DNA from: Candidatus Nealsonbacteria bacterium
GTDB taxonomy: Bacteria > Patescibacteriota > Minisyncoccia > Minisyncoccales > JANBVM01
NCBI GenBank assembly: GCA_026016225.1
Contig: CP061210.1
Coordinates: forward strand, 130,000-193,999
DNA length: 64,000 nt
Direction: 5' to 3'
Part shown: positions 25,035-63,888 of the stretch, one piece after another
Numbering within the stretch: position 1 is the stretch's first letter
Layout of the letters: each line of letters starts with the position of its first letter
Translations under genes and position numbers: made by a program
The notes under the pieces: generated by a model
What the model saw: the letters and a program-made list of their open reading frames with translations, nothing else
Databases searched by the model: none
What the model was told of the DNA's origin: nothing

Positions 25035-27488
25035 ATGGAGATTTTATATTGGATAGTTCTCATTTTGATTTCAGTAATAGGGGGAGTGCTGATTTTTCTC
25101 TTTTTAAAGAAAAAAGAAAAGGGACAAGTTTTAGGGAGCTTAGATATGTCCCTTTTTTTAGTGAGTATGCCAAAGCACAGATTAAAAAAAGAAGAAATGA
25201 CAGGAAAAGAAGAAAAAACCTTAATTGGCCAGATGGAACAGGTTTTAAGTAGTTTTCTTTATCTAAAAAAGCCAGGCTTTTTTGAAAGAATTATTTTTGG
25301 TTCTCCGAGGGTAGTCCTTGAGATTGCTTCTCAGATCGGTGGAACCGATATTTCTTTTTATGTAGCTGTACCTAAATTTTTGGAAACTGCTCTTGAAAAG
25401 TATATCCAGGGGGTTTATCCTCGAGCTTTGGTAGAAAAAATTCCCCAAGATTACACTATTTTTGAACCGGGTGGTTTTACTGCAGGCTGTTATTTAAAAT
25501 TAAAAGAACCTCTTCTTTTTCCAATTAATACATACAAAAACTTAGAAAAAGACCCTTTAGCTACTATAACCAATACCTTAAGTAAAATTGCCCCAGATGA
25601 AGGAGCAGCAGTTCAAATAATTATTAAACCCTCACCATTGAATTTAAAAAAAATAGGCGACAAAGCTTTAGCGAAAATCAGAGAAGGCAAAACCGTGAAA
25701 AATGCGATTTCTGAAGCATGTAGGTCTCCTGCTCTTAGTTTTTTAATAGAGCTATTTAAGGTTTTTTCAGCCCAACCTGGCAAAAAGCCAGATGAAAGAA
25801 GAATGGAAGAATTCAGGAGGACCGGCTCTAAGATTGATGAAAGCACTATTCAATCTATTCAAACTAAAATCCAAAAACCAATTTTCGAAACCAATATTAG
25901 ATTGCTAACTTCAGCTCCAACTTTAGAAAGAGCAAAAGAAATCTTGAGCCATCTTCAAGGAGCTTTCAGTCAATTTTCACTTTTTGTTTCCAATAGTTTC
26001 TATATGGTTGAATTGAAGAAAAAACGCCTTAAAAAACTTGTTTATGATTTTAGTTTTAGAAACTTTAACCCAAATCAAAGGGTTATTTTAAACATTGAAG
26101 AACTAACCAGTATTTACCATTTTCCCACTTATTATACTGAAACTCCTTATATTAAAGCTGCCAAAAGCGGGGTAGCAGCTCCTCCTGCTGAACTTCCAGA
26201 AAAGGGATTAAATTTAATTGGCAAAGTTCTTTTCCGGGGAGAAGAAAAAAGAGTTTCTTTTGCTACCAGAGAAGACAGAAGAAGGCATTTTTACATTATA
26301 GGTCAAACCGGAACCGGAAAAAGCAGCTTATTGCGAGAAATGATCCGCCAGGATATTCAAAATGGCGAAGGAGTAGCAGTTATAGATCCCCACGGCGATT
26401 TAATTGAGGACACCTTGGCTAATATCCCAAAAGAAAGAATAAAAGATGTAGTTTTATTCGAACCTTTTGATATCAGCCGACCTATAGGCTTAAACATGCT
26501 TGAATATGAAAGCCCCAGCCAAAAAGATTTTGCCGTCCAGGAAATGATAGCTATTTTCCATAAACTTTTCCCGCCAGAGATTATAGGTCCAATGTTTGAG
26601 CATTATATGAGAAATGCTATGTTAGCCATAATGGCAAACAAAGAAGACCCAGGTACTTTGGTTGAAATCCCCAGAATGTTTACTGATGAAGAGTTTATGT
26701 CTCATAAACTGAAAAGTGTTACAGACCCTATAGTTAAAAGCTTCTGGCTAAAAGAGTGGAAACAAACAACAGGTGCTACCAGGTCTGATATGTTAGGATA
26801 TGTTGTTTCCAAAATTGGTCGTTTTATTGGAAATGAAATGATGAGAAATATTATTGGTCAACCTCATTGTGGTTTTGATTCAGGAAAAATAATGGAGGAA
26901 GGTAAGATTTTCTTAGCCAATCTTTCCAAAGGATTAACAGGCGAAGTAAATTCTTCTTTGTTGGGCTTAATTTTGGTTTCAAAAATGCAAATGGCAGCAA
27001 TGAGAAGAGCCAAGGTTCCAGAAGAAAAAAGAAAAGATTTTTATTTATACATTGATGAGTTTCAAAATTTCACCACCAACAGTATCGCCACAATTCTTTC
27101 TGAAGCCAGAAAATACCGCTTAAATTTGATTTTAGCTCACCAATATATTCCTCAACTTGTTCCTGAAATCAGAAATGCTGTTTTGGGTAATGTGGGAACA
27201 ATTGGAGCCTTCAGAATTGGAGCCGACGATGCTGAATTTTTGGAAAAACAATTTGAGCCAGAATTCTCTCGGTTTGATTTGGTTAATCTTGACAATTTCA
27301 ATTTAGTGGTAAAGATGATGATTAAAAATAATATCTCAGAAGCTTTTAGAATTCAAACATTTCCTCCTAAAAAAGGAAATCTAAAAATTATTGAATTAAT
27401 CAAAAAAATCTCAAAACAAAAATACGGCCGGCCAAAAGCGTTGGTTGAGACTGAAATCTTAAAAAGGTCAAGGTTAATCAGTCTTTAA
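25035..27488 (+). CDS. VirD4/TraD-like type IV coupling protein (membrane-anchored P-loop ATPase)
   Basis: N-terminal TM helix, Walker A GQTGTGKSS, Walker B LYIDEFQNF, and EARKYRLNLILAHQYIPQL, which is typical of T4CP/TraD-like ATPases. Confidence 0.75.
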   Translation: MEILYWIVLILISVIGGVLIFLFLKKKEKGQVLGSLDMSLFLVSMPKHRLKKEEMTGKEEKTLIGQMEQVLSSFLYLKKPGFFERIIFGSPRVVLEIASQIGGTDISFYVAVPKFLETALEKYIQGVYPRALVEKIPQDYTIFEPGGFTAGCYLKLKEPLLFPINTYKNLEKDPLATITNTLSKIAPDEGAAVQIIIKPSPLNLKKIGDKALAKIREGKTVKNAISEACRSPALSFLIELFKVFSAQPGKKPDERRMEEFRRTGSKIDESTIQSIQTKIQKPIFETNIRLLTSAPTLERAKEILSHLQGAFSQFSLFVSNSFYMVELKKKRLKKLVYDFSFRNFNPNQRVILNIEELTSIYHFPTYYTETPYIKAAKSGVAAPPAELPEKGLNLIGKVLFRGEEKRVSFATREDRRRHFYIIGQTGTGKSSLLREMIRQDIQNGEGVAVIDPHGDLIEDTLANIPKERIKDVVLFEPFDISRPIGLNMLEYESPSQKDFAVQEMIAIFHKLFPPEIIGPMFEHYMRNAMLAIMANKEDPGTLVEIPRMFTDEEFMSHKLKSVTDPIVKSFWLKEWKQTTGATRSDMLGYVVSKIGRFIGNEMMRNIIGQPHCGFDSGKIMEEGKIFLANLSKGLTGEVNSSLLGLILVSKMQMAAMRRAKVPEEKRKDFYLYIDEFQNFTTNSIATILSEARKYRLNLILAHQYIPQLVPEIRNAVLGNVGTIGAFRIGADDAEFLEKQFEPEFSRFDLVNLDNFNLVVKMMIKNNISEAFRIQTFPPKKGNLKIIELIKKISKQKYGRPKALVETEILKRSRLISL

Positions 27489-32685: not shown

Positions 32686-33948
32686 ATGAAGAAATTTATT
32701 AGGAATAAAAAAATTCTCCTTTTATTTGTACTTTTGGGATTTTTTTTCATTGTTTCAAAAACATTTGCTTTAGAAATAGACTGGCCAAAGTCTCCCGTAA
32801 GCGATACTCAATTAAATGATGACAGCGTGCTCGGAGATATGGTTAAGTATTTTTATGAGTGGGGAATTACTATGGGTGGATTAGTAACGTTTTTTTCTTT
32901 ATTAATTGGTGGATTCAAATATTTAACTTCAATAGGAAGTCCAACAGTAATGAAGGAAGCAACTGACCAAATAACCTCAGCTTTTTTAGGTCTCATTTTA
33001 CTTTTATCGTCCTGGTTGATTCTAAACACAATCAGCCCTCAATTTACAACTTTTCAAGCAAATCCTTTTAAGAAAAATCCCTATGGGGGAGAGTGGGGTG
33101 ATTTTTCATTCAAACAACAACCTTCTTGTGATTACGCCATTTTATATGACAATAGTGGAAACGAAATAGAAATTGAGGGAACCACGGAAACTGAATTAAC
33201 TGAAGACTTAGGGATAGTCCATTTAAAATCATCTCCTGTCTCTATTAGAGCCTTCCGCAAAGAAGAAGAGAAAGATAAAGAGTGTGGCCCAGAGGCATGT
33301 TTATGCTATGTAAAATTATATGCAGATGTCGATGAGGGAAGCTGTAATTTTATGGTAGCAGAGCATTTTGCATATCATAATGATCTTCCTAGCTTAATAG
33401 ATCCAGAATACAAACCTATAAAGTGTATACAATTAAAAGCGGGAGGAGCTTGTCGTCCCTGTTATAAGCCCGATGAAAGCGGTAAATGTATTTGGGTTGG
33501 AGACACTAATTGGGGAGAAGGCTTAGCTGAATGTTATGGAGATAACAAACGCTGTTTTGATAAAAAATGTAGAACTTGCGAGGGCTGGTGGGACAATGAC
33601 GGACTGGGTGGAAAGGGCTGCTGGTATAAAGAGAAAGGAGGAGAAGCTGGTCATAGTTGTAATAATGAAATTTGTAAAGACCATGGTGGATGTGTAGATG
33701 CAAATTGGAATGATGATGAGAATTGCACTATCTGCAGGCACTTTTTTGGTTCTGATGCTGGCTGTATTGACGATGCTCATCACCACGCCCCTTTTTGGGG
33801 AAACTCATGGCTCAAATATCCAACTCCCTACTGCTATTATAGGACGGGCGAGCAAGGCAGTTATGACCAGGATTGCGATTCAGGCATTCCAAAGCACTCT
33901 GCATCTTGGGAGAATTGGGAGTGGCGTATATGCGTGTGTGAGTATTAA
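32686..33948 (+). CDS. VirB2/TrbC-like T4SS pilin domain fused to a large cysteine-rich C-terminal domain
   Basis: A signal/TM segment is followed by two hydrophobic helices (GITMGGLVTFFSLLIGGFKYL, AFLGLILLLSSWLILNTI), arranged as in T4SS pilins. The C-terminal roughly 290 aa contain about two dozen Cys plus many Trp, Gly and Asp. Confidence 0.5.
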   Translation: MKKFIRNKKILLLFVLLGFFFIVSKTFALEIDWPKSPVSDTQLNDDSVLGDMVKYFYEWGITMGGLVTFFSLLIGGFKYLTSIGSPTVMKEATDQITSAFLGLILLLSSWLILNTISPQFTTFQANPFKKNPYGGEWGDFSFKQQPSCDYAILYDNSGNEIEIEGTTETELTEDLGIVHLKSSPVSIRAFRKEEEKDKECGPEACLCYVKLYADVDEGSCNFMVAEHFAYHNDLPSLIDPEYKPIKCIQLKAGGACRPCYKPDESGKCIWVGDTNWGEGLAECYGDNKRCFDKKCRTCEGWWDNDGLGGKGCWYKEKGGEAGHSCNNEICKDHGGCVDANWNDDENCTICRHFFGSDAGCIDDAHHHAPFWGNSWLKYPTPYCYYRTGEQGSYDQDCDSGIPKHSASWENWEWRICVCEY

Positions 33949-34007: not shown

Positions 34008-36533
34008 ATGAATGTGAGAAACAAACTCAAATATCTATTTTTAATAATTACAATAGGCAGTTTGCTTCTTCCTAAACCAACCTTAGCTTTCATTGGAACC
34101 GGAGTTTTTGACTTTTTCAGCACCGCCCTAGGAGGAATAGAAGAAATTTCAGGTCCTGTAGCTAAAATGCTCTTCATTGTTTTAATGGCTTATATTATTG
34201 GCATTGTATGTCTTTATACTTCTGCTTCTCTTTTAGAGCTTGTAATTGAAAATCCTGGATGGCTTTCTTTATCTGGAAACACGATGGTGAAAAGTGGTTG
34301 GGACATAATTTCTGGTCTATCCAATATGTTTTTCATCTTAGTCTTTATAATTATTACTTTGGCTATTATTTTAAAAATTGAAAGCTCCGAGGCAAAAAAG
34401 CTTTTACCAAAATTATTAATTGTTGCTCTTTTAGTTAATTTCAGCTTAGTTTTTATTGGAATATTGGTTGATATTTCAACTATTTTCTATAATACTATTT
34501 TAACAGAAGAAAACGAAGGTCTTCCCACCAAAGCAATTAATATCCTTGGAGTAGACGGACAAAATATCGTAGAGCAAATAATTACTCAAATTATAGCTCT
34601 TGCTGTAGCTTTTGTAGTACCTATTTTTGGTCCTTTCGCTCAACTTGGACTAGTTCTCGGAATAATAACTCTTGGTTATATTTCAAATATTATAATTTGG
34701 ATAGTCCAAAGTATTTGTTTTTTTATGATGAGTGGAATATTCTTTACTTATGCTTTCTTATTTGCCGCCAGGATATATATTATTCAATTATTAGCAATGT
34801 TAGCTCCTTTGGCTTTCCTGTGTTCTGTCTTGCCTCAGACTAAGAAATATTGGGATGAATGGCTTAAAACGATTGTGGAGTGGATTTTTTTAGGAATAAT
34901 CCTTTTCTTATTTTTGGTTTTAGGATTAAGGGCTGCAGATTCTTTACTTCCATCTGAAGGTATAACTTCTATTCCCCTTTTAGCCTGGGGAAATCTACCT
35001 GCCTATTTTCCTTATTATTTCTTCTTGTTTGTTTATTTAACAACTACTCTCTGGCTCAGCAAAAAATATATGCCAGAGCTTGCTGGCGCTATGATTGAGC
35101 AAGGCAAAGCCTGGGGTGGAATGGTATGGTCAAGAGGACTAAAACCACTCGGTAGAGCTGCACAACCAGCTGCAGAAAAAGTAGGGGAGGCAGTTGGAAA
35201 GAGGGTCGGAGGAAGACTTGCAGGATGGGGAGAAAAACAGAGAATAACTGGGGTTGAGAAGTCTAAAAAACTAGAGGAGAAAAAAGGTGCTAAGGCATGG
35301 TTCAGTAGAAGGGGTAGAGGTTGGCAACGAAGAATCGGAACGGGGGCAGAAATAACTGGCAGGGGAATAGCGGCTGGGATAGAAGAATCTAAGATTAGAA
35401 GAATCGAAGAACTAAAAGAGAAAACAAAAGGAAAAACAGAACAGACACAATTTTTTGAACTTCAAAAGGCACTAACTCAAAAACTCCCCGAAGAAGCACT
35501 TGGGATTACGGAAGCCATGATTGAAGACAATACTTTGGAAAAGGCTGAAAAAGCTGGTATTTTTGGGGATAAAGAACATAAAGAGTTAGTAAGGCGTAGT
35601 AAAGAATTGGGTAGAAAGACTATTTATAATTATAAACCAGACATAGCGGCTCCGATAGTAGAAAAAGAAAAGTGGGAAAGGGCAGAAAGTCTAATAAAAA
35701 AAGGAGGAATGCTTAAAGAAGAAGGTTCAGATGAAGAAGGAAATAAACTTATCAAAGAAGGAGAAGAATCCAAAAAAGAAATTTTGTCTGACATGCTTAA
35801 GGGAATTAAACCTTCACAAGTAGCTCAAATATCAGAAGAATCACTTAAAAATAACAAAATAAAAGAAGCTATAATAGATAGCTTTACTGGTAGTCAAATG
35901 GCTGAAATCGGTAGAAATTTTGAAGTAGATACCGTGGAAGGTATCCAAAGAAAAATTGATAAGATAGAAGATTTTGAAGAGTTTGCAGAGAAAAATCCTT
36001 CTCTTACTCTTTGGCTTCATGGAAATGCAGCTCAAAATTTAGGCTTTAGATCACCTACTTCTATTGTTGGTCTTCCTCGAGATGACTTAAGAAAAAGAGT
36101 TGCTGATACCCGGGTATCAGCGGAAAAAACTCGTTCCGACAAGAAAGAGAAGATTAAAATAAAATATTTTCCAGGAAAAGAAGTAATGATGTTTAAAGAT
36201 TATTATCGAAAAGACACTCTAAACACGACTAAATCCTTTATTAAAGAAATTGTGGCTAAAAAAGGAAAAACTATTCCTCTGGAGACTGAAGTTAAAAGAA
36301 GAATTGGAAAGTTTGAAAAAGAATACGATAAACTAAATAAAGAATGGTGGAAAACTTGGAAAAACTTCAAAGAAATAAGGGATGAATATCAGTCGGCGGA
36401 TAGCCCAACTGACGAGCAAGAGCAAGCTTTCCAAAAAGCTAAATCAGATATTGAGAAAAAGAAAACTAAAATCGATGAAACTCAAGCAAAGCTGATAGAA
36501 TCCGAACAAAACGCCTTAAAAGATCTCTGGTAA
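34008..36533 (+). CDS. polytopic membrane protein (VirB6/TrbL-like) with long Lys/Glu-rich coiled-coil C-terminal half
   Basis: A signal peptide and many hydrophobic helices occupy the first roughly 370 aa, and it sits immediately after the pilin-like gene. The C-terminal roughly 470 aa are charged and coiled. Confidence 0.45.
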   Translation: MNVRNKLKYLFLIITIGSLLLPKPTLAFIGTGVFDFFSTALGGIEEISGPVAKMLFIVLMAYIIGIVCLYTSASLLELVIENPGWLSLSGNTMVKSGWDIISGLSNMFFILVFIIITLAIILKIESSEAKKLLPKLLIVALLVNFSLVFIGILVDISTIFYNTILTEENEGLPTKAINILGVDGQNIVEQIITQIIALAVAFVVPIFGPFAQLGLVLGIITLGYISNIIIWIVQSICFFMMSGIFFTYAFLFAARIYIIQLLAMLAPLAFLCSVLPQTKKYWDEWLKTIVEWIFLGIILFLFLVLGLRAADSLLPSEGITSIPLLAWGNLPAYFPYYFFLFVYLTTTLWLSKKYMPELAGAMIEQGKAWGGMVWSRGLKPLGRAAQPAAEKVGEAVGKRVGGRLAGWGEKQRITGVEKSKKLEEKKGAKAWFSRRGRGWQRRIGTGAEITGRGIAAGIEESKIRRIEELKEKTKGKTEQTQFFELQKALTQKLPEEALGITEAMIEDNTLEKAEKAGIFGDKEHKELVRRSKELGRKTIYNYKPDIAAPIVEKEKWERAESLIKKGGMLKEEGSDEEGNKLIKEGEESKKEILSDMLKGIKPSQVAQISEESLKNNKIKEAIIDSFTGSQMAEIGRNFEVDTVEGIQRKIDKIEDFEEFAEKNPSLTLWLHGNAAQNLGFRSPTSIVGLPRDDLRKRVADTRVSAEKTRSDKKEKIKIKYFPGKEVMMFKDYYRKDTLNTTKSFIKEIVAKKGKTIPLETEVKRRIGKFEKEYDKLNKEWWKTWKNFKEIRDEYQSADSPTDEQEQAFQKAKSDIEKKKTKIDETQAKLIESEQNALKDLW

Positions 36534-36674: not shown

Positions 36675-37208
36675 TTAATCTCTTTGATAATTGTTTAGCT
36701 GATCTTGAAACTCTGTAATCAATGCATTTTTTTCATCTTCTGTTAATCTCTCGTCATCTCCTATTCTTTTTAATAGACGTGTCAAACTAGCTCTATGACG
36801 ACTAGTAGTTCCTGGCTGAGTTTGATGAGCTTGATGTAAGGCTTGATGCAATGGTGCTTGTGATGGTTGAACTTGTGGGGATTGAGAAGTATCGGTGCTA
36901 TCTTGACGATTTTCACGAACTATATCTTCCACTTGTCTCCTCACTCCTCTACTTTGATCATTTATATTTCCTGAATCGCTAACCGCTTGATTTTTCTTGG
37001 TAATTCTACTAATCACCTTGTTCCATTCCTTCATTTTTTTCCCCGACTTTTTAATTTCTTTCCGAAGTCTAATTGCCTCCTTGATTGCCCTTTTGCCCTC
37101 TTTTTTTAATTCTTTATCCGACAACTGTTGCTGATTTTGTTGCTGCTGCTGTTGCTGATTTTGTTGCCGAAGACTCTCTTCTTTATCGTCTAAATTGGAC
37201 AATATCAT
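36675..37208 (-). CDS. hypothetical Gln-rich protein
   Basis: 177-aa ORF with a QQNQQQQQQQNQQQ tract. A near-consensus promoter and a GGAGG lie upstream. Confidence 0.5.
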   Translation of the reverse strand: MILSNLDDKEESLRQQNQQQQQQQNQQQLSDKELKKEGKRAIKEAIRLRKEIKKSGKKMKEWNKVISRITKKNQAVSDSGNINDQSRGVRRQVEDIVRENRQDSTDTSQSPQVQPSQAPLHQALHQAHQTQPGTTSRHRASLTRLLKRIGDDERLTEDEKNALITEFQDQLNNYQRD

Positions 37209-37770: not shown

Positions 37771-38184
37771 ATGCGTTTTACAATTCCTCAATTTATTGAA
37801 CACGAAGCAAAAATAATAGGTCCCTTAACCTTCAAACAGTTTATTTTTGTGGGCATTGCAGGAGCTATTTGTTTTGTGCTTTATTTTACTGTTTCTTTCA
37901 CTATATTTTTACTCTCCTGTATTGTTTTGGGAGGAATAGCTTTAGCGTTTGCTTTTTTAAAGATAAATAATATGCCTCTTCCCGGTTTTATTGCCAATTT
38001 TCTAAAATATAATCTTTCGCCAAAAATGTACCTTTGGGAGAAAAAAGGGATTAAAGAAAGGGAATTTGAAGAACAAATAATTATAAAAAAAGAAGAAATC
38101 GCGGAAGATGAACTTCCTTTAAAAATTGGAGGAAAGAGTCGTTTAAAAAAGATGAAAACACAAATTGAAACAAGAGGTAAATAA
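37771..38184 (+). CDS. PrgI-like (VirB3-analogous) small membrane protein
   Basis: MRFTIPQFIEHEAKIIGPLTFKQFIFVG followed by two TM helices, the pattern of PrgI-family proteins that precede VirB4 in Gram-positive T4SS. Confidence 0.6.
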   Translation: MRFTIPQFIEHEAKIIGPLTFKQFIFVGIAGAICFVLYFTVSFTIFLLSCIVLGGIALAFAFLKINNMPLPGFIANFLKYNLSPKMYLWEKKGIKEREFEEQIIIKKEEIAEDELPLKIGGKSRLKKMKTQIETRGK

Positions 38185-38228: not shown

Positions 38229-38873
38229 TTGTCTATGCCTAAATCTGCTACCCAACAACTTTTAGAAGTAGATAAAATTAAAGAGGGAGTAGTTGTTTTG
38301 AAAAATAAGGCTTTAAGGGGAATACTAATGGTCTCTTCACTTAATTTTGCTTTAAAATCTGAAGAAGAACAAAAAGCTATTATCTATCAATTCCAGAGTT
38401 TTTTAAACTCTCTTGATTTTTCTTTAGAGATAATTATCCAATCAAGAAAATTAAATATCACCGGCTATCTGGATAAATTAAAAGAGTTGGGAATTAAAGA
38501 AAAAAACGAACTTTTAAAACTACAAATTGGAGAGTATGAAAAATTTATCGAAGAGTTAATTGCGGGCGGAGCAATTATGTCAAAGAATTTTTTTGTGGTT
38601 GTGCCCTTTATCCTTGCCGAACTTCCAAGATTAATAAAAAGCGAAGACGATGCAAAAAAGACAAAAAAAACCCTTACGGAAGAAAGGTTTCAAAGAGCTA
38701 AAATACAGCTCTGGCAAAGAATGGAATTTGTCGCTTTAGGTCTAAGGAGGTGCGGTCTTCAGGGCATACCTTTAAATACTATTGAATTAATTGAGCTTTT
38801 CTGGAGTTTATACCACCCTGAACAAGCAGAGGTCGGATATTATCCAGAAATCCCTCCTGAGTTATCACAATAA
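38229..38873 (+). CDS. hypothetical T4SS-locus protein resembling the non-ATPase N-terminal region of VirB4-type proteins
   Basis: 214 aa. LEVDKIKEGVVVLKNKALRGILMVSSLNFALKSEEEQKAIIYQFQSFLNSL follows the pattern seen at VirB4/TraE N-termini. The stop lies 1 nt before the VirB4-like start. Confidence 0.35.
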   Translation: MSMPKSATQQLLEVDKIKEGVVVLKNKALRGILMVSSLNFALKSEEEQKAIIYQFQSFLNSLDFSLEIIIQSRKLNITGYLDKLKELGIKEKNELLKLQIGEYEKFIEELIAGGAIMSKNFFVVVPFILAELPRLIKSEDDAKKTKKTLTEERFQRAKIQLWQRMEFVALGLRRCGLQGIPLNTIELIELFWSLYHPEQAEVGYYPEIPPELSQ

Positions 38874-38874
38874 G

Positions 38875-41800
38875 ATGAAATTTCCATTTTTTAAAAAAAG
38901 AAAAGAGCTTCCAAAACAAATCTTTGAAGCTACAACAATAGGGATAAAAGATATTATTGCTCCTTCAGCCCTCACCTCATTAAAACCAGACTATTTAAAA
39001 TTGGGTAAAAGATTAGCCAAGTCTTTTTTTATCTTTTCTTATCCAAGATATATAACTACCGGATGGTTTTCTCCCATTGTTAATCTGGACACACCAATGA
39101 ACATTGCTGTTCACATCAATCCTATCGACACTGGAACCATTTTAAAAGAGTTAAGAAAGAAGGTGACAGAGGTTACGGCTGAAATTATGGAAAGACAGGA
39201 AAAGGGGCTTATCAGAGACCCTGCTTTAGAAATTGCATATAGAGACCTTGAAGATTTAAGGGATAAATTACAAACTGCCCAAGAAAGGATGTTTAAACTT
39301 GGCGTTTATTTAACCGTTCTCGGAGATAACACTCAGCAATTAAAAGAGGTGGAAACAACCTTAAGGTCGATGTTGGAGTCAAGATTAATTTATATTAAAC
39401 CTGCTCTTTACCAACAGCTGGAGGGTTTTAATTCTACAGCTCCTTATGGTTTAGACCAACTTCGAGTCTACACCTCAATGAACACCGCTCCCCTTTCATC
39501 AACCTTCCCCTTTGTTTCTTTTGACCTGAGTTCCAGTGAAGGAATTTTATACGGTATTAACAGACACAACAATTCTTTAATTTTATTTGACCGCTTTAGT
39601 CTGGAAAATGCTAATGAAGTTTTATTTGGTAAGGCGGGCTCAGGAAAGTCAATCCTCGGTTCTGAACCAGTTTTAATAAAAAATAAAGATAAAGTTCAAT
39701 TAATAAAAATAGGGCCTTTAGTGAAAAAGTTAATTAAAAAACACGGGATAACTCAAATTGATGAAGAATTAGAAGGAGTAATTAATCCTGAAATTAGAGT
39801 TTATAGTTTTGATAAAAACTTAAAAGGAAAGTGGTCAAAGGTTACGGTAGCCGCCAGAAAAAAAGCGCCAAAAATTTTCTATAAATTCACTACTAAGAGT
39901 GGTAGAAAAATTACTACAACTGGCGATCATAATATGTTGATTCTAAAAAATGGGAAAATAGTGGCCGCTAAAAGCTCTGAAATAAGAGAGGGTGAATTTG
40001 TTCCTTTACCCCGGGAGGTCTCTGAAACTGACTCTCCTTTAAAATCTTTAAATCTTTTAGAATTACTTAGATATTCAAAAGGGATTTATGTAACAGGTGG
40101 AGAACATTTAATTAGAGAAAATTATAAGAAATTAAAGAGGGCTAATTTAGATAAAAGCTTTAATCGCTATCTTTACAATTATAAATCTGGCCGTCGTGTT
40201 CCTCTTCAATATCTCTGGAAAATATTGGATTACCTTAAAATTAAACCTAATAGCCTAAAACTTAAAAACTTAAAAGTTATTTCAAAAAACGGGAAAAAGC
40301 AATATTCTTTAGATGTTAATTTTCAAATCACGTCAGAGTTTTTAAAGCTAGCTGGTTTCATTGCAGCTGAAGGAACAATTGGAGCCGATTTCATAATGAT
40401 TAGTAATAAAGATAGAGAAGTTCTTAGGGAAATAGATTGCTCTCTTTCGAAATTGAAAGTTCCTTTTTATTATGGAAACCGAGGTATAGTCATTGCTTCT
40501 CGAGTATTTATAGAAATAGTAAAAGCTTTAGGGGGGCAAGGAAAATCAAAACAAAAGAAAATTTTACCGGTTATATTTAATTTAAAAAAAGAAAAAATTG
40601 CTAAATATTTATCAGCTTATTTTGAAGGAGATGGAGGAGTAGAAAATAATGTTTATATTTCAGCAGTCTCAAAATCTAAAAGATTAATTTCAGAAATCAG
40701 CTATCTTCTATATTATTTTGGAATTATTGGGAGAATATCAAAGGCAAAAAAGAAAGCTCCTAATTGGAAGTATAAGAAGGTTTACTGGAAGATTACTATT
40801 TCAGGACAAAAAAACCTCCGGAAGTTTGCCGAGAATATTAATTTTATTTCGGAAAGAAAAAGGAAACAACTTTCTGAAACTATTAAAAAAGAGGGGAACA
40901 CCAATGTCGATATCATTCCAAGATTAGAACCCATCTTTAAAGAGATTTACGAGCTCTTCTCTCCTCATCTTTATGGAATAACAGAAATATCTGAATGGAA
41001 AAGAGGGGTTCGTCATCCTTCTCCTCATCATTTACTAAAAGTAATCAATAAAATTGAAGAAAGAATTAAGCATTTTAAAGATTTAGCTTCTACTTTTAGA
41101 ATCTTAAGCGAGCTCCCAGAATTAGTTACAATAGTTAATTTAGGGAAGAATAATAAAAAATTAAATAGGGCTTTATGGCAAGCTTTGGGTCAGAACTGGC
41201 GAGTAGTAAAAAATGAAGGAGTTAAACCCTTTTGCCGTAATGCTTTTAAAATAATTGAAACAGTAAATGATCAATTTTATTCTTTAAAAAATCTTAAAAA
41301 AACAATCCATTTAGGCTTTCAAGAAATGGGTCTTCCTGTGAAATATTACGATCCCTCTTTACAATCAGCTCTAGTGACAAGACCTGAAAGTAATACAAAT
41401 TACGAAACAATTCAAAAAGCCGCTCAGTTTATTTGGCAAAATTATCAAGAGACTTTAGTAAATAAAATTCCTCAGGTTGAGGAAAAATTGGCTCAACTGA
41501 AAATTTTAGCCGATTCTGATCTTTTCTGGGACCCAATTGTTAAAATTAAGAGAATTAAAAACAAAAAAGAGAAATATGTTTATGACTTAACTGTTGATAA
41601 TGAAGTGTTTTTGGCTGGTGCTGAAGGGATGTTTGTTCATAACTCTTACGCTGTTAAAGTAGATATTATAAGGTCTTTAATGTTAGGGGTTGATGTAATG
41701 GTCCTTGACCCCGAAAACGAGTATAAACACTTAGCTGAGGCAGTAGGAGGCTCTTTTTTCAATATTTCTTTAGCTTCACCAAATCATATCAATCCTTTTG

Positions 41801-42657
41801 ATTTACCTACTCCAAGAGAAGATGAAAAACCAGAAGATGTTTTGAGGTCAAATATTATCAATTTAGTAGGACTCTTGAGAATTATGTTGGGAGGGCTTAC
41901 ACCCGAAGAAGATGCAATTATAGACCAGGCTTTAGCTGAAACCTATGCTGCAAAAGATATTACACCTGAAAGCAACCCATCCACCTGGCAGGAAAGGATA
42001 CCCCTAATGAAGGATTTTGAAGCTGTTTTAGAGGGAATGGAAGGAGCTGAGTCACTGGTAAGAAGAGTAAGGAAATTTACCAAAGGAACCTTTTCTCAGT
42101 TTTTCAACCAACCAACAAACATCACTATGGATAAACCTTTTGTTTCTTTTGGAATAAGGGATATGGAAGATGAATTAAGACCGATAGCAATGTTTATCAT
42201 TATGCGCTATATCTGGAATAAAGTCAGGTCAGAACTAAAAAAGAGAGTTTTAGTTGTTGATGAGGCTTGGTGGATAATGCAAAACGAAGATGGAGCTTCT
42301 TTCCTTTATGGAATCTGTAAGAGGGGTAGAAAATATTGGTTAGGGGTAACCACTATATCGCAAGACCTTAATGATTTTATGAAGTCTGCCTACGGACAAC
42401 CAATTATTACCAACTCTTCCTTGCAGATTTTAATGAAACAATCACCAGCCACTATTGATGCTGTAAAAAAAGCTTTTAACTTAACCGAGGAGGAAAAATA
42501 CATCTTATTGGAAGCTGAGGTAGGGGAAGGAATATTTTTTGCAGGACAAAAGCATGTGGCTATGAAAGTGGTAGCTTCTTACACCGAAGACCAAATAGTT
42601 ACCACCAGCCCTGAAGAGGTTTTAAGGATAAAAAAAGCTAAAGAAGGAACTCTTTAG
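38875..42657 (+). CDS. VirB4-like T4SS ATPase interrupted by an intein
   Basis: Walker A FGKAGSGK|S is split by the insert, Walker B is VLVVDEAWWIM, and GVTTISQDLNDF is also present. The ATG at 38875 is preferred over the track start at 38791. Exteins sum to about 595 aa. Confidence 0.85.
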   Translation: MKFPFFKKRKELPKQIFEATTIGIKDIIAPSALTSLKPDYLKLGKRLAKSFFIFSYPRYITTGWFSPIVNLDTPMNIAVHINPIDTGTILKELRKKVTEVTAEIMERQEKGLIRDPALEIAYRDLEDLRDKLQTAQERMFKLGVYLTVLGDNTQQLKEVETTLRSMLESRLIYIKPALYQQLEGFNSTAPYGLDQLRVYTSMNTAPLSSTFPFVSFDLSSSEGILYGINRHNNSLILFDRFSLENANEVLFGKAGSGKSILGSEPVLIKNKDKVQLIKIGPLVKKLIKKHGITQIDEELEGVINPEIRVYSFDKNLKGKWSKVTVAARKKAPKIFYKFTTKSGRKITTTGDHNMLILKNGKIVAAKSSEIREGEFVPLPREVSETDSPLKSLNLLELLRYSKGIYVTGGEHLIRENYKKLKRANLDKSFNRYLYNYKSGRRVPLQYLWKILDYLKIKPNSLKLKNLKVISKNGKKQYSLDVNFQITSEFLKLAGFIAAEGTIGADFIMISNKDREVLREIDCSLSKLKVPFYYGNRGIVIASRVFIEIVKALGGQGKSKQKKILPVIFNLKKEKIAKYLSAYFEGDGGVENNVYISAVSKSKRLISEISYLLYYFGIIGRISKAKKKAPNWKYKKVYWKITISGQKNLRKFAENINFISERKRKQLSETIKKEGNTNVDIIPRLEPIFKEIYELFSPHLYGITEISEWKRGVRHPSPHHLLKVINKIEERIKHFKDLASTFRILSELPELVTIVNLGKNNKKLNRALWQALGQNWRVVKNEGVKPFCRNAFKIIETVNDQFYSLKNLKKTIHLGFQEMGLPVKYYDPSLQSALVTRPESNTNYETIQKAAQFIWQNYQETLVNKIPQVEEKLAQLKILADSDLFWDPIVKIKRIKNKKEKYVYDLTVDNEVFLAGAEGMFVHNSYAVKVDIIRSLMLGVDVMVLDPENEYKHLAEAVGGSFFNISLASPNHINPFDLPTPREDEKPEDVLRSNIINLVGLLRIMLGGLTPEEDAIIDQALAETYAAKDITPESNPSTWQERIPLMKDFEAVLEGMEGAESLVRRVRKFTKGTFSQFFNQPTNITMDKPFVSFGIRDMEDELRPIAMFIIMRYIWNKVRSELKKRVLVVDEAWWIMQNEDGASFLYGICKRGRKYWLGVTTISQDLNDFMKSAYGQPIITNSSLQILMKQSPATIDAVKKAFNLTEEEKYILLEAEVGEGIFFAGQKHVAMKVVASYTEDQIVTTSPEEVLRIKKAKEGTL
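39649..41643 (+). mobile_element. 665-aa intein with LAGLIDADG homing-endonuclease domain, inserted in the VirB4 P-loop
   Basis: It starts SILGSEPVLIK (Ser1, block A-like). Block B is TTTGDHNML. The LAGLIDADG motifs are LKLAGFIAAEGTIG and LSAYFEGDGGVE. The C-terminus is VYDLTVDNEVFLAGAEGMFVHN, followed by +1 Ser (SYAVK). Confidence 0.8.
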
Positions 42658-42725: not shown

Positions 42726-43916
42726 TTATAGAAGCCATTCAGCGTAGTAACCTTGAGTAAGTTCAGTTTTAGCCGTAGCATCAGACCTTATAGTGTAAAT
42801 GTAACTGTCTTCATAAGACGGACCGACCGCATAAACAAGCCATTGTCCATCAGGCGACCAGGAAGGAGATTCTACTTCTACATATACTCTACCCAATTCT
42901 ATTTTACCAGTCCCGTCAGTGTTTATAATATAATAGATATTTCCCGCAGTAAAATTACTATAGTAGAGAATCTTTGTTCCGTCGGGCGACCAAATTAAAC
43001 AACTATCCCACTTGTCTACCTCAGAATCTACCTTAGTTTTACCTGTTCCATCAGGATTTATAAAACAGAGAGTTGAATTTTGTTCAATTACGTAGGCAAT
43101 TTTTTCTCCATTAGGTGACCATCTAATGCGGCTGCCTCCTATTTTTTCATCATCTATCTTAGTTTTTCCCGTTCCGTCAACGTTTATGATACAAAGGTAT
43201 CCAGAATCATCTCCGTAAACAATTTTTTCTCCATTAGGAGACCAAGAAGGTAGGTGTCCACCACAGCTATCAAGTTGAATTTTTCCGGTTCCGTCAACAT
43301 TAATGACATATAAAGAGCCATCCCAGCCAAGGCAGAGAATCTTTGTTCCATCAGGTGACCAGAAAGCAGTGAAGGGGTTATCAAGTAGTTGAATTTTTCC
43401 GGTTCCGTCAACGTTAATGACATGTATAGACATATTCCAACGGCAGAGAAGCTTTGTTCCATCAGGTGACCATTCAGCAACACTACATCCCTCATCAAGC
43501 ACAGTTTTACCTGTGCCATCAGTGTTTATAACATATAAGGTAGAGGATATAGTATAGGCAATCTTTTCCCCATCAGGTGATAAATGGGGAAAAAAGATAG
43601 AATGGGAAAAAATTCCTGTATCAATCTCTATCTTGTCTGTTCCGTCAGCATTAATAATGGATATATTGCAAAATGTCTCTCCCGTTGATGTTTTTCCTTG
43701 TGAAATAAAAAGGATTTTTCTTTCAGGTAGAATTTCTTCTGGTTCTTCGTCTGGTTCTTCGTCTATTATTTCTTCATCCTCATCTTCTCCTGGAACTCCA
43801 TCTTCTATTTCATTTTCTGACATCTGCATAAGATAGCAAGCAAGTCCTATCCCTCCAGATATCATAATAGCAATCAACACCACAGCAACAATAGCTATTT
43901 TAATCTTCTTTTTCAT
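42726..43916 (-). CDS. membrane-anchored beta-propeller repeat protein (PD40/TolB-like repeats)
   Basis: An N-terminal TM helix and an acidic linker are followed by about 8 repeats of the I/VINxDGTGK...WSPDG(T/E)KI pattern. Confidence 0.7.
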   Translation of the reverse strand: MKKKIKIAIVAVVLIAIMISGGIGLACYLMQMSENEIEDGVPGEDEDEEIIDEEPDEEPEEILPERKILFISQGKTSTGETFCNISIINADGTDKIEIDTGIFSHSIFFPHLSPDGEKIAYTISSTLYVINTDGTGKTVLDEGCSVAEWSPDGTKLLCRWNMSIHVINVDGTGKIQLLDNPFTAFWSPDGTKILCLGWDGSLYVINVDGTGKIQLDSCGGHLPSWSPNGEKIVYGDDSGYLCIINVDGTGKTKIDDEKIGGSRIRWSPNGEKIAYVIEQNSTLCFINPDGTGKTKVDSEVDKWDSCLIWSPDGTKILYYSNFTAGNIYYIINTDGTGKIELGRVYVEVESPSWSPDGQWLVYAVGPSYEDSYIYTIRSDATAKTELTQGYYAEWLL

Positions 43917-45980: not shown

Positions 45981-47327
45981 ATGAACCAAGAAGAGCTCTG
46001 GCAGGCAGTTTTAGCCCAAATTCAATTACAAATTTCCTCCGCAAATTTTGCAACCTGGTTTAAAAATACCCAGATTGTCTCCCAGAGAGATGGGCTTGTC
46101 TTTGTTTCCGTTCCTAACTCATTCGCTAAAGAATGGCTTGAACAAAAATATAATAAAACTATTTTTAAGGTCTTACATAATTTAGATAAACAAATTAAGG
46201 GGGTAAGGTATGAAACGGGAAAAACAGGTTTAAAAACTCTAAAAAAGATAACCTTCTTTCCGAAAACCGAGCAATTAGAGTTTCAAGAATTTGAAGTTGA
46301 AAGAGAAACAAATCTTAACCCAAGATATACTTTTAACAATTTTGTCGTGGGACCCTTCAATGAATTGGCTCACGCAGCAGGATGGGCAATAACGCAAAAC
46401 CCTGGCAAGGTTTATAACCCTCTCTTTGTTTATGGAGGGGTTGGCTTGGGAAAAACTCATCTTTTACAAGCTATTGGTAATAAAATAATAAAGAATTTCC
46501 ACCAAAAAAAAGTCAAGTACATCCCAACGGAAAAATTTGTCTCAGAGGTTATATCTGCAATTAGAAATCGTCAAATTGAAAAACTTAAATTAGAATATCA
46601 AAAAAATGATGTTTTAATTATAGATGATGTTCAATTCTTAGCCGGCAAGGAAAAAACGCAAGAAGAATTCTTTTATACTTTTAATAGTTTATATGAAAAA
46701 AACAAACAAATAGTTCTTTCTTCTGACCACTCGCCAAAAGCTATTCCATCCTTAACGGAAAGATTAAGGTCCCGCTTTGAGGGGGGGATGATGGCTGACA
46801 TATCTCTTCCCGACCTGGAAACAAGAATAGCTATTTTAAAATCTAAATGCCAGGAAAGAAAGACTGAACTCCCCGAAGATATTTTAAACTATATCGCCTC
46901 TATTATTAAACGAAACATTAGAGAGTTAGAGGGGGCCCTAAATATATTAATCGCCTATCAAAAATTAAATGGTTCTCAGCCCGATTTAAAAACAACAAAA
47001 TCTCTATTAAAAAATTTAATTTCTTCTCAAAATAAAATTGTTAATGCAAAGAGAATAATTCACACAGTAGCTAATTTTTATGATTTAAGGGAAAAAGATT
47101 TAATCTCTGTATCAAGAAAAAGAGAAATTGTCCTCCCAAGGCAGATAGCAATGTATTTATTAAGAAAGGAACTAAAAGCATCCTTTCCCTTTATCGGTAG
47201 AAAGCTTGGCGGTAAAGACCACACTACGGCTATTCATGCCTGTGAAAAAATCAATAGAGAAATAGAAAAAGATGAAGGTTTAAACCAGGAAATCGGGTTA
47301 ATAAGACAGAGAATTTTATATGGATAA
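45981..47327 (+). CDS. dnaA: chromosomal replication initiator DnaA
   Basis: WQAVLAQIQLQIS N-terminus, Walker A GGVGLGKTHLL, DDVQFL, and the C-terminal DNA-binding block GRKLGGKDHTTAIHA. Confidence 0.95.
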   Translation: MNQEELWQAVLAQIQLQISSANFATWFKNTQIVSQRDGLVFVSVPNSFAKEWLEQKYNKTIFKVLHNLDKQIKGVRYETGKTGLKTLKKITFFPKTEQLEFQEFEVERETNLNPRYTFNNFVVGPFNELAHAAGWAITQNPGKVYNPLFVYGGVGLGKTHLLQAIGNKIIKNFHQKKVKYIPTEKFVSEVISAIRNRQIEKLKLEYQKNDVLIIDDVQFLAGKEKTQEEFFYTFNSLYEKNKQIVLSSDHSPKAIPSLTERLRSRFEGGMMADISLPDLETRIAILKSKCQERKTELPEDILNYIASIIKRNIRELEGALNILIAYQKLNGSQPDLKTTKSLLKNLISSQNKIVNAKRIIHTVANFYDLREKDLISVSRKREIVLPRQIAMYLLRKELKASFPFIGRKLGGKDHTTAIHACEKINREIEKDEGLNQEIGLIRQRILYG

Positions 47328-62448: not shown

Positions 62449-63888
62449 ATGATTTCTAAGAATAACTTTAAAAAAGTAAAAAATTATTTATGGGAGATTC
62501 CTAAGAGTTTTCGAGTTGGCATGAGAGTTCCAGCGCGTATTTATATTTCTGAAAAGATATGGGAACAGGTTGAAAGCAAAGCATTGGAGCAACTGGTAAA
62601 TATTGCTTTTTTGCCTGGAATTGTAAAATATTCTTTAGCTATGCCAGATATTCATACCGGCTACGGCTTTGTTATTGGTGGAGTGGCAGCCACTAAATTC
62701 CCAAATGGAGTAATTTCCCCCGGCGGAATAGGATTCGATCAGAATTGTGGGGTTAGATTGTTGAAATCAGAATATACTGAAAAAGACGTTAAATCCCATT
62801 TAGATAGATTAGCTACTGAGATACAAAAAGAAGTTCCTTCTGGTTTAGGGAGAGGCAGGAAAATAAAATTAAGCATTGAACAGATTAATAAGATTTTAGA
62901 GGGTGGAGTTTCTTATCTTGTAAAACAGGGCTATGGAGAAAAAGAAGATATTGAAAACTGTGAAGAAAGAGGAAGATTGGAACAAGCAGAGGCTTCAGTT
63001 GTTTCTGATCGAGCTAAAAACAGAGGGAGAAATCAAGTTGGGACTCTCGGATCAGGGAATCATTTTTGTGAAGTTCAAAAAGTAGACGAGATTTTTAACG
63101 AAGAAGTAGCAGAAGCATTTGGGTTATTTAAAAACCAAGTAGTGATAATGATACATACTGGTTCAAGGGGCTTGGGTCATCAAAACTGTACAGATTATTT
63201 GAGGGTAATGGCGCGAGTTATGCCCAAATACAGTATAAAATTACCAGACAGAGAACTAGCCTGTGTTCCTTTCAACTCGCCAGAAGGGCAAATATTTTTT
63301 AAAGCAATGTGCGCTGGAGCAAACTACGCCTGGGCTAATCGTCATATGATAGCTCACCATGTAAGGAAAGCTTGGAAAAAGATATTAGGAGAAAAAGAAG
63401 AACTTAGTTTGCTTTATGATGTTGCCCATAATATCGCTAAAATTGAGGAGCATGAAGTTAACGGAGAGAGAGTGAAATTAATTGTACATCGAAAGGGAGC
63501 GACAAGAGCTTTTCCTCCTCATCATCCTGAAATCCCGGAAAGATACCAAGCAGTTGGGCAGCCAGTTTTAATTCCGGGCTCAATGGGAACAGCTTCTTAT
63601 ATTTTGGCAGGGACAGAACAATCTAAGGAAACATGGCATTCTGTTTGCCATGGCGCAGGACGAATAATGTCCCGACGTCAGGCTACAAGGACAATTTCTG
63701 GGCAAGAAGTGGTGAAAGATTTAGAGCAAAAAGGGATTATTATTAAATGCCAGAGTTTGAGAGGAATTGCCGAGGAAGCCCCAATGGCCTATAAAGATAT
63801 TGATAATATTGTCCAGATAGTCCATAATGCTGGATTGTCTAAAAGAGTGGCAAAATTAAGACCACTAGCTGTTATTAAGGGAGAATAA
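62449..63888 (+). CDS. rtcB: RNA-splicing ligase RtcB
   Basis: MPDIHTGYGF, GFDQNCGVR, GSGNHF, HTGSRGLGH and HGAGR motifs; 479 aa. Confidence 0.9.
   Translation: MISKNNFKKVKNYLWEIPKSFRVGMRVPARIYISEKIWEQVESKALEQLVNIAFLPGIVKYSLAMPDIHTGYGFVIGGVAATKFPNGVISPGGIGFDQNCGVRLLKSEYTEKDVKSHLDRLATEIQKEVPSGLGRGRKIKLSIEQINKILEGGVSYLVKQGYGEKEDIENCEERGRLEQAEASVVSDRAKNRGRNQVGTLGSGNHFCEVQKVDEIFNEEVAEAFGLFKNQVVIMIHTGSRGLGHQNCTDYLRVMARVMPKYSIKLPDRELACVPFNSPEGQIFFKAMCAGANYAWANRHMIAHHVRKAWKKILGEKEELSLLYDVAHNIAKIEEHEVNGERVKLIVHRKGATRAFPPHHPEIPERYQAVGQPVLIPGSMGTASYILAGTEQSKETWHSVCHGAGRIMSRRQATRTISGQEVVKDLEQKGIIIKCQSLRGIAEEAPMAYKDIDNIVQIVHNAGLSKRVAKLRPLAVIKGE

Follow-up and report, generated by a model that had tools for sequence, protein, structure and literature searches.

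In a 64,000-nt stretch of a Candidatus Nealsonbacteria genome (contig CP061210.1, positions 130,000 to 193,999 of the forward strand; hereafter the window), the gene for VirB4, an ATPase of a type IV secretion system (T4SS), encodes a protein whose Walker A loop is interrupted, between its Lys and its Ser, by 665 additional residues (GKAGSGK/S, where the slash marks the insertion point). What is this insert, and how did it come to lie there? The initial annotation had described it as a LAGLIDADG intein in the Walker A motif of a VirB4-like ATPase, and that description is supported by profile, structural, comparative and population evidence. The insert is very probably a canonical class 1 intein, bearing a two-motif LAGLIDADG homing endonuclease, that was recently gained within the VirB4 Walker A motif of a Ca. 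Nealsonbacteria-like genome.

The virB4 precursor gene spans 38875–42657 on the + strand (1260 codons plus stop) and comprises an N-extein, the intein and a C-extein. The listed open reading frame (ORF; 38791–42657, + strand, 1288 aa) starts at a TTG at 38791, which is almost certainly wrong; the ATG at 38875 (MKFPFF...) is preferred, since a start there agrees with the homologues both in the N-terminus and in their length of 595 aa. The N-extein (38875–39648, + strand, 258 aa) ends in FGKAGSGK, the first part of Walker A, and the C-extein (41644–42657, + strand, 337 aa plus stop) begins at Ser+1, the Walker A Ser, and contains the Walker B sequence VLVVDEAW. Between them lies the intein (39649–41643, + strand), an in-frame, stop-free segment of 665 aa whose translation opens with SILGSEPV and closes with GMFVHN, flanked by NEVLFGKAGSGK on the N-side and SYAVKVDIIRSL on the C-side; its placement between FGKAGSGK and SYAVKVD in the initial annotation was exact. 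A run of 665 codons free of stops has a probability of ~4e-27 at the local base composition, and reading in the other two frames meets 65 and 82 stops; the open frame is therefore not a product of chance. The Walker A motif is whole (GKAGSGKS) only after removal of the intein. Moreover, the NCBIfam profile for the CD1110 family of VirB4-like conjugal-transfer ATPases (NF045971, cut-off 325 bits) scores 343.9 bits against the unspliced sequence and 367.3 bits, in one continuous match, against the spliced one. The C-extein also matches the P-loop_TraG, AAA_10 and DUF87 profiles.

The insert carries the signatures of a splicing (Hint) domain at both ends. The N-terminal Hint lobe (39649–40023, + strand, residues 1–125) provides block A in the form of Ser1 (codon TCA, 39649–39651) and block B as T91-G-D-H94 (39919–39930), which conforms to T-x-x-H. 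The C-terminal lobe (41521–41643, + strand, residues 625–665) contains block F, VYDLTVD, with D646 at 41584–41586, and block G, FVHN, with the His-Asn pair at 41638–41643; the class 1 residues D646, H664 and N665 are thus all present and are followed directly by Ser+1 (codon TCT, 41644–41646). The Ser1, the block B sequence TTTGDHNML, the two LAGLIDADG motifs and the terminal FVHN with its Ser+1, as claimed beforehand, were each found in place. When the insert was searched against the intein profiles of Pfam and NCBIfam, all scored above their curated cut-offs: Intein_splicing (PF14890) with 75.4 bits (cut-off 35.8), intein_Nterm (TIGR01445) with 45.8 bits (cut-off 24.5) and, over the C-terminal lobe, intein_Cterm (TIGR01443) with 25–26 bits (cut-off 15.6).

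Consistent with the profile data, an AlphaFold2 model of the whole intein, built on a 30-sequence family alignment, reached a predicted local distance difference test (pLDDT) score of 92.5 and a predicted template modelling (pTM) score of 0.85, and its top Foldseek matches in the PDB were the inteins PI-PkoII (2cw7, E 9e-26), TliVMA (7qss) and PI-PfuI (1dq3). The Hint fold in the predicted structure was matched by the mini-inteins 5o9i, 6rpq and 4e2t at a root-mean-square deviation of ~2 Å over ~125 residues, and the hedgehog Hint domain 1at0 was matched as well. A phmmer search placed two solved chains closest by sequence, over residues 2–140: the TFIIB mini-intein 5o9i and PI-PkoII. The intein has a net charge of +55 and a pI of 9.9, against an extein pI of 5.9, and a GC content at third codon positions of 22%, against 32% in the extein; the charge and the base composition both fit a DNA-binding element of foreign origin.

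A double-motif LAGLIDADG endonuclease core occupies 40333–40887 (+ strand, residues 229–413), where the Pfam family LAGLIDADG_3 (PF14528) was matched twice with 67.1 bits. Motif 1, LAGFIAAEG (40348–40374, + strand), and motif 2, LSAYFEGDG (40609–40635, + strand), each have an acidic residue at the penultimate position, the catalytic E241 and D328, respectively, and a further residue of the core, K303 (40555–40557, + strand), is conserved in 42 of 42 full-length family members. The order of secondary structure elements predicted for the core fits the pseudo-dimeric alpha-beta-beta-alpha-beta-beta-alpha fold, and Foldseek matched the core to I-DmoI (2vs7), I-Tsp061I (2dch) and PI-PfuI. Among close family pairs the ratio of nonsynonymous to synonymous substitution (dN/dS, Nei-Gojobori) across the core is 0.05–0.26, and the nuclease is therefore being maintained and not just carried along. 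On the strength of these residues and of the modelled fold, 39649–41643 is taken to be a genuine intein, probably competent both for splicing and for homing.

With the spliced 595-aa extein as query, thousands of VirB4 proteins were retrieved and the closest 120 were listed; all 120 are 591–604 aa long and none has the insert. The alternative that the insert is a normal VirB4 domain, which the initial annotation had named as a finding that would count against an intein, was therefore rejected on its absence from all 120 closest homologues listed. The best matches, P0001 and P0002, are exactly 595 aa in length and 98% identical to the spliced product. Three intein-free sister loci were compared at the DNA level: L001 (CP179892.1, a 654-kb Ca. 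Nealsonbacteria genome) and L002 and L003, from two other assemblies. Synteny with the window is complete across ksgA, the pilin-like gene, the polytopic membrane protein gene, PrgI, the TrsD/TraC-like gene, virB4, jag, yidC, rnpA, rpmH, dnaA and dnaN. The flanking DNA is 93–97.5% identical to that of the sisters, and the blastn alignments stop exactly at 39648 and restart at 41660. Deletion of the 1995 nt at 39649–41643 leaves a 1788-nt gene that aligns to all three intein-free alleles without an indel, at 96.0–96.9% nucleotide identity, and restores GKAGSGKS as had been anticipated; the empty site in L001 and L002 reads …GGAAAG/AGTTATTGCATC…. Comparison with intein-free alleles thus gives colinear genes in syntenic loci, whose products are 98% identical in amino acid sequence.

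The same insertion point (G-x-G-K / S/T/C ... H-N / S-Y/F) is used in ~40 VirB4 proteins found by protein search. At the genome level, at least 132 species-level genomes matched the intein, and the site is occupied in 70 of the 80 species representatives that were fetched. The hosts are Paceibacteria-type, Microgenomates-type and Saccharibacteria-labelled metagenome-assembled genomes, together with a few DPANN archaea. Members such as L004 (Paceibacterales), L014 (Nealsonbacteria), P0132 (Harrisonbacteria) and the Micrarchaeota sequences P0160 and L069 share the identical insertion point (G-x-G-K / S ... H-N / S-[YF]) and the domain order of the window's intein, including a basic insert and a helical module described below, at 38–73% identity to it. 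They differ in that many are shorter (391–615 aa) and a few begin with Thr or Cys. Across the family, lengths range from 391 to 679 aa with a modal full-length form of 650–680 aa, to which the window's intein belongs; the shorter members are without the basic insert, the first LAGLIDADG half or the helical module, and such loss of modules in some members is as the homing-cycle model predicts. Among 42 full-length members, T91, H94, E241, K303, D646, H664 and N665 are invariant and D328 is present in 41, while the first residue is Ser in 40 and Thr in two. The C-terminal Hint lobe is the most conserved domain, with a mean pairwise identity of 75.5% and a dN/dS of 0.03–0.06. More distant relatives of the intein occupy the same P-loop position in other ATPases. 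Some of the patescibacterial relatives are already labelled 'intein/homing endonuclease' in databases; a literature search found no paper describing this same-site Patescibacteria VirB4 intein family.

Relatives at the same P-loop site were also seen in DUF87/VirB4-like ATPases of DPANN archaea (Micrarchaeota; L051, L069, P0160, P0161 and P0178). Between the window and these members the intein is 39% identical and the extein ~22%; this greater similarity of the intein suggests transfer between Candidate Phyla Radiation (CPR) bacteria and DPANN archaea. As a separate observation, the first intein residue is Thr or Cys in L004, L006 and L075 and in L056, L060 and L072. Thr1 is an unusual N-terminal nucleophile.

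Conservation of this kind bears on whether the element might be a dead remnant, with splicing or the endonuclease inactive, so that virB4 would in effect be a pseudogene or the endonuclease no more than a lingering passenger. Some family members are indeed degraded and retain no first LAGLIDADG half or no helical module, and Ser1/Ser+1 inteins can be slow splicers, which counts on the same side. However, the 1260-codon frame is intact in a gene of 31–37% GC, an outcome whose chance for the intein part is ~4e-27; the nine key residues are all there and are conserved in the family, and the window has the full-length form. In addition, dN/dS is well below 1, and outside the junction region the extein shows no surplus of replacements, being 98% identical to orthologues that look functional. 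Inactivity of the element is therefore regarded as very unlikely.

How the intein may have reached this gene is suggested by its C-terminal junction. At 41644–41659 (+ strand), the first 16 nt of the C-extein read TCTTACGCTGTTAAAG in the window and AGTTATTGCATCAAGT in the intein-free sister alleles, a difference at 10 of 16 positions: TCT stands in place of AGT, TAC of TAT, GCT of TGC, GTT of ATC and AAA of AAG, and the sixth codon begins with G in place of T. Elsewhere in virB4 the maximum is 3–4 mismatches per 16 nt, giving this patch a corrected P of ~1e-8 to 1e-7. Three of the changes are synonymous codon switches (AGT to TCT, TAT to TAC and AAG to AAA), one of which crosses between Ser codon families, and for this reason selection on splicing cannot explain the patch. 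Of 31 window-specific substitutions, 14 fall within +0 to +84 of the C-extein, becoming sparser beyond the patch, to ~41728. Towards the 5′ side, just three window-specific changes were found in the last 100 nt of the N-extein, which is not significant evidence of co-conversion there. The patch matches the intein-bearing consensus TCnTAtncngtnAAa, whose typical flank is S-Y-A-[VI]-K encoded as TCn TAy GCn, and is read as a donor-type co-conversion tract; all four intein-free alleles of the window's own clade have AGY and an SYC or SYS flank. The Ser+1 codon is TCN in 71 of 71 intein-bearing alleles versus 3 of 10 intein-free ones (Fisher p = 3.5e-8), an association that may stem from hitch-hiking of the neighbouring codon or from the specificity of the endonuclease. 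In haloarchaeal MCM inteins, extein codons beside the insertion site are documented to be co-converted upon invasion (PMC10643990).

In the three intein-free alleles with a TCN Ser codon (L093, L094 and L096) the flank too, S[YF]A[VI]K, is of the kind that elsewhere marks intein-bearing alleles. Such flanks may have been left as scars when an intein was lost precisely, or they may be targets that are susceptible by nature.

The near-identity of the flanks to those of intein-free strains could also be expected of an assembly artefact, in which the contig joins reads of two co-occurring populations; the window comes from a probably metagenomic assembly, and searches of protein and contig collections did not turn up an identical sequence. 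Yet the two junctions preserve the frame and are exact in their chemistry, and at least 70 independent assemblies show this same architecture. Moreover, a chimera would still need an intein-bearing allele with species-matching flanks on both sides within ~20–90 nt, which leads to the same biological conclusion. An artefact of this kind is considered extremely unlikely.

In a neighbour-joining tree of the exteins, the window groups with P0001 and P0002 and is nested in an intein-free clade; the nearest intein-bearing allele, L004, lies several nodes away, beside another intein-free allele. Because the window is nested among intein-free alleles, the most parsimonious reading of the sequences is one recent gain in the window's lineage, accompanied by co-conversion of a short stretch of donor extein. 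The converse would be that the intein is old and vertically inherited, and that L001–L003 lost it precisely by recombination with an intein-free allele, the patch being foreign in them and not in the window. The pairwise pattern taken alone is indeed symmetric between gain and loss. Moreover, intein identity and extein identity are correlated across the family (Spearman 0.72), and the pair formed by the window and L004 (extein 88%, intein 73%) lies on that trend. However, the next outgroups (P0003–P0007; at the DNA level L084 and L085) are all intein-free and have the same AGY/SYC-type flank as L001–L003, and many independent precise losses would be needed to leave the window inside an otherwise wholly intein-free clade. 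Old inheritance with loss in the sisters is consequently held to be improbable.

Several points nevertheless weigh against a functional, recently gained homing element. Splicing and DNA cleavage are read from conserved residues and from a predicted fold. Synonymous divergence (dS) is near saturation for most of the pairs used for dN/dS; the ratio is well below 1 in every intein domain, and 0.23 overall in the least saturated pair (dS 0.30). The correlation between intein and extein identity suggests that the history of the family has been mostly vertical, or one of exchange among relatives. No donor was found: searches of 5.8 billion proteins, a 50%-identity representative library, GTDB species genomes and JGI metagenome contigs gave no intein more than 73% identical, the best matches being 73% (L004, Paceibacterales) and, in metagenomes, 70%. 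In addition, the sisters carry AGT at Ser+1, and were TCN a requirement of the endonuclease, the intein may have entered by plain homologous recombination and not by endonuclease-driven homing. On the other side, the possible mobility that the initial annotation drew from the intact endonuclease motifs is strengthened by three observations: genomes ~96–97% identical are without the insert, the patch is of donor type and the nuclease is under purifying selection.

For the recently gained class 1 intein, the following course of events is proposed from the residues present. The 1260-aa precursor would be translated and Ser1 would undergo an N-O acyl shift, aided by T91 and H94 of block B. Attack by Ser+1 would then give a branched intermediate, from which cyclization of Asn665, aided by His664 and D646, would release the intein, and an O-N shift would join GKAGSGK to SYAVK, restoring GKAGSGKS and ATP binding by VirB4. 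The freed, basic intein would act as a site-specific endonuclease that cuts intein-free virB4 alleles entering the cell, and repair from the intein-bearing copy would transfer the intein together with a short flanking stretch of extein. In this lineage the element would most likely be a recent acquisition from a related donor that has not been sampled. Splicing should be a prerequisite of VirB4 ATPase activity, because the P-loop is split by 665 residues until it has occurred.

It had also been proposed that splicing could act as a post-translational switch, and a stronger form of this idea would make the intein a domesticated regulator, in which conditional splicing gates the T4SS ATPase and the intein is retained for that function. 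The position in a catalytic P-loop is in keeping with such a role, as is the essential part played by the T4SS in the epibiotic growth of the cultured relative Ca. Southlakia (PMC12102498). That certain P-loop inteins may be of benefit has been argued by Novikova et al. (PMC4760082), and the residues of the splicing domain are strongly conserved. However, the intein is dispensable, being absent from 98%-identical orthologues and from all of the 120 closest VirB4 homologues listed, and its distribution is sporadic. The nucleophiles are Ser and Ser; the whole intein contains two Cys, none of them catalytic or at or near either junction, and the extein Cys at +3 is replaced by Ala. Moreover, the endonuclease is kept by selection, which fits selfish homing. 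A redox switch was rejected on the absence of junctional Cys, the switch proposal as such found no support, and the domesticated regulator is highly improbable; the insert behaves like a selfish element.

Two modules of the selfish intein fall outside the Hint and endonuclease domains. The first is a basic insert between the N-terminal Hint lobe and the endonuclease (40045–40326, + strand, residues 133–226; boundaries taken from the AlphaFold2 model), which has a net charge of +15, matches no NCBIfam family and is present in only part of the same-site family. It is a putative DNA-recognition region. The second is an all-helical module (40927–41511, + strand, residues 427–621) modelled with a pLDDT of 94.3. 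Its first ~50 aa are weakly common to other LAGLIDADG inteins, and residues ~481–621 are specific to the VirB4-type intein family; among 316 fetched proteins, a local hidden Markov model found the full module only in the same-site family. Foldseek searches of the PDB and BFVD with the module gave nothing at E<0.1, and no Pfam or NCBIfam family was matched. The module has a dN/dS of 0.04–0.18 and is deleted in some family members; that it provides extra target recognition is a guess.

A more ambitious, and at present doubtful, version of the recent gain would see a fresh invasion of one species-level population by an actively homing intein family aimed specifically at the VirB4 P-loop in Patescibacteria and in some DPANN archaea. 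The helical module (~140–195 aa) would possibly be a new accessory domain, serving DNA-target recognition or the coupling of splicing to T4SS assembly, and the TCN codon would stand for target specificity or for immunity, based on AGY, of alleles that have not been invaded.

Known inteins provide a close precedent for most of this architecture. PI-PkoII (Thermococcus kodakarensis DNA polymerase intein 2, 2cw7), PI-PfuI (1dq3) and TliVMA (7qss), the closest in structure (Foldseek E 9e-26 to 1e-17), likewise have a Hint domain split by a two-motif LAGLIDADG endonuclease and accessory DNA-binding parts, and PI-PkoII was also recovered by sequence, in the N-terminal Hint and endonuclease regions. 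They differ in showing 15–16% sequence identity and in their hosts, archaeal polymerase, ribonucleotide reductase or V-ATPase genes; moreover, they are shorter (432–537 aa versus 665), and none accounts for helical module residues ~481–621. The P-loop is a recognised hot spot for inteins (e.g. DnaB-b, MCM-a and RFC-a), and a catalogue of 2016 (Novikova et al., PMC4760082) lists five VirB4 (COG3451) inteins, from Firmicutes and Proteobacteria. These catalogued elements share the host class and the logic of Walker A insertion, which makes host function dependent on splicing, the VirB4 ones being compared here by host class and not by insertion site; the catalogue was compiled before most Patescibacteria genomes became available and has no entry from that group.

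Haloarchaeal MCM and PolB inteins show the same presence/absence polymorphism among close relatives, with co-conversion of flanking codons in an essential P-loop ATPase; homing has been shown experimentally in that system, whereas in the window it is deduced from sequence footprints (PMC10643990). The I-ShaI-type LAGLIDADG enzymes in CPR rRNA introns are likewise homing elements of the same radiation, with signs of having spread horizontally through homing, but they are mostly single-domain, reside in group I introns and are removed at the RNA level, while the window's enzyme has two motifs and sits in a protein-splicing element (PMC11270868). The VirB4 intein is thus a well-understood kind of selfish element that involves no new mechanism, its added interest being the apparent recent invasion and the unclassified module.

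For studies of Patescibacteria the consequences are practical as well as evolutionary. In a sizeable minority of these organisms VirB4 is 1000–1260 aa long owing to the intein, and the lengths, alignments and phylogenies of T4SS signature proteins need intein-aware handling. Presence and absence among ~96–97% identical relatives, together with the co-conversion tract, show directly at the sequence level that uncultured episymbionts with reduced genomes have recently exchanged homologous DNA. Moreover, new parts for splicing or DNA recognition could come from this Ser1/Ser+1 intein family, which occurs naturally in many sizes and includes a helical module that is unclassified.

The genes around virB4 are those of a patescibacterial, MPF-FATA-like T4SS. 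Immediately upstream, a TrsD/TraC-like gene (38235–38873, + strand) ending 1 nt before the virB4 ATG encodes the VirB4 N-terminal domain as a separate protein, as judged from NCBIfam TrsD, positions 2–107 of the CD1110 profile and, on orthologues, PF26593 (TraC-like). The possibility that this 214-aa ORF, which lies in another frame, reflects a split gene or frameshift was rejected, since it is a conserved separate gene in all relatives examined; a separate gene for this domain is known for Patescibacteria (PMC12102498). Further upstream lie a PrgI (VirB3-like) gene (37771–38184, + strand; Pfam PF12666, 42.5 bits), a gene for a polytopic 841-aa membrane protein (34008–36533) with no profile match, which may be VirB6-like, and a pilin-like gene (32686–33948) that matches the T4SS_pilin profile; dnaA is found near the cluster, at 45981. 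The TrsD-like, PrgI and T4SS_pilin genes with dnaA nearby correspond to the organisation described for Patescibacteria T4SS, which are chromosomal, dnaA-proximal, relaxase-poor and related to monoderm conjugation machinery; the survey that described them makes no mention of inteins (PMC12102498).

Parts of this neighbourhood vary between strains. The 841-aa gene and the C-terminal part of the pilin-like gene show ~79–80% DNA identity to the sisters or cannot be aligned, versus 93–97.5% in the flanks, and have the look of T4SS parts that are hypervariable and exposed at the surface. Between virB4 and jag, a strain-variable ORF for a PD40/WD40-like beta-propeller (42726–43916, − strand) stands where L001 has, on the same strand, a 416-aa gene with no recorded Pfam match and where L002 and L003 have no gene. 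A 177-aa ORF rich in Gln (36675–37208, − strand) is likewise strain-variable; it has no family match, and no counterpart of it is called in L001.

No other intein was seen among ten large ORFs of the window that were scanned. An 817-aa VirD4-like P-loop ATPase (25035–27488; TrwB_AAD_bind and DUF87), resembling a type IV coupling protein and lying ~11 kb upstream of virB4, is intein-free. The same applies to RtcB (62449–63888), a frequent intein host in other bacteria. Finally, the window contains several fatty-acid-related genes in an otherwise reduced, CPR-type genome (136–1419, 5500–6993 and 8627–12656), which encode a DegV/FakA-like protein, a fusion of FabA-like and NMO (FabK-like) domains, a biotin carboxylase and a carboxyltransferase.

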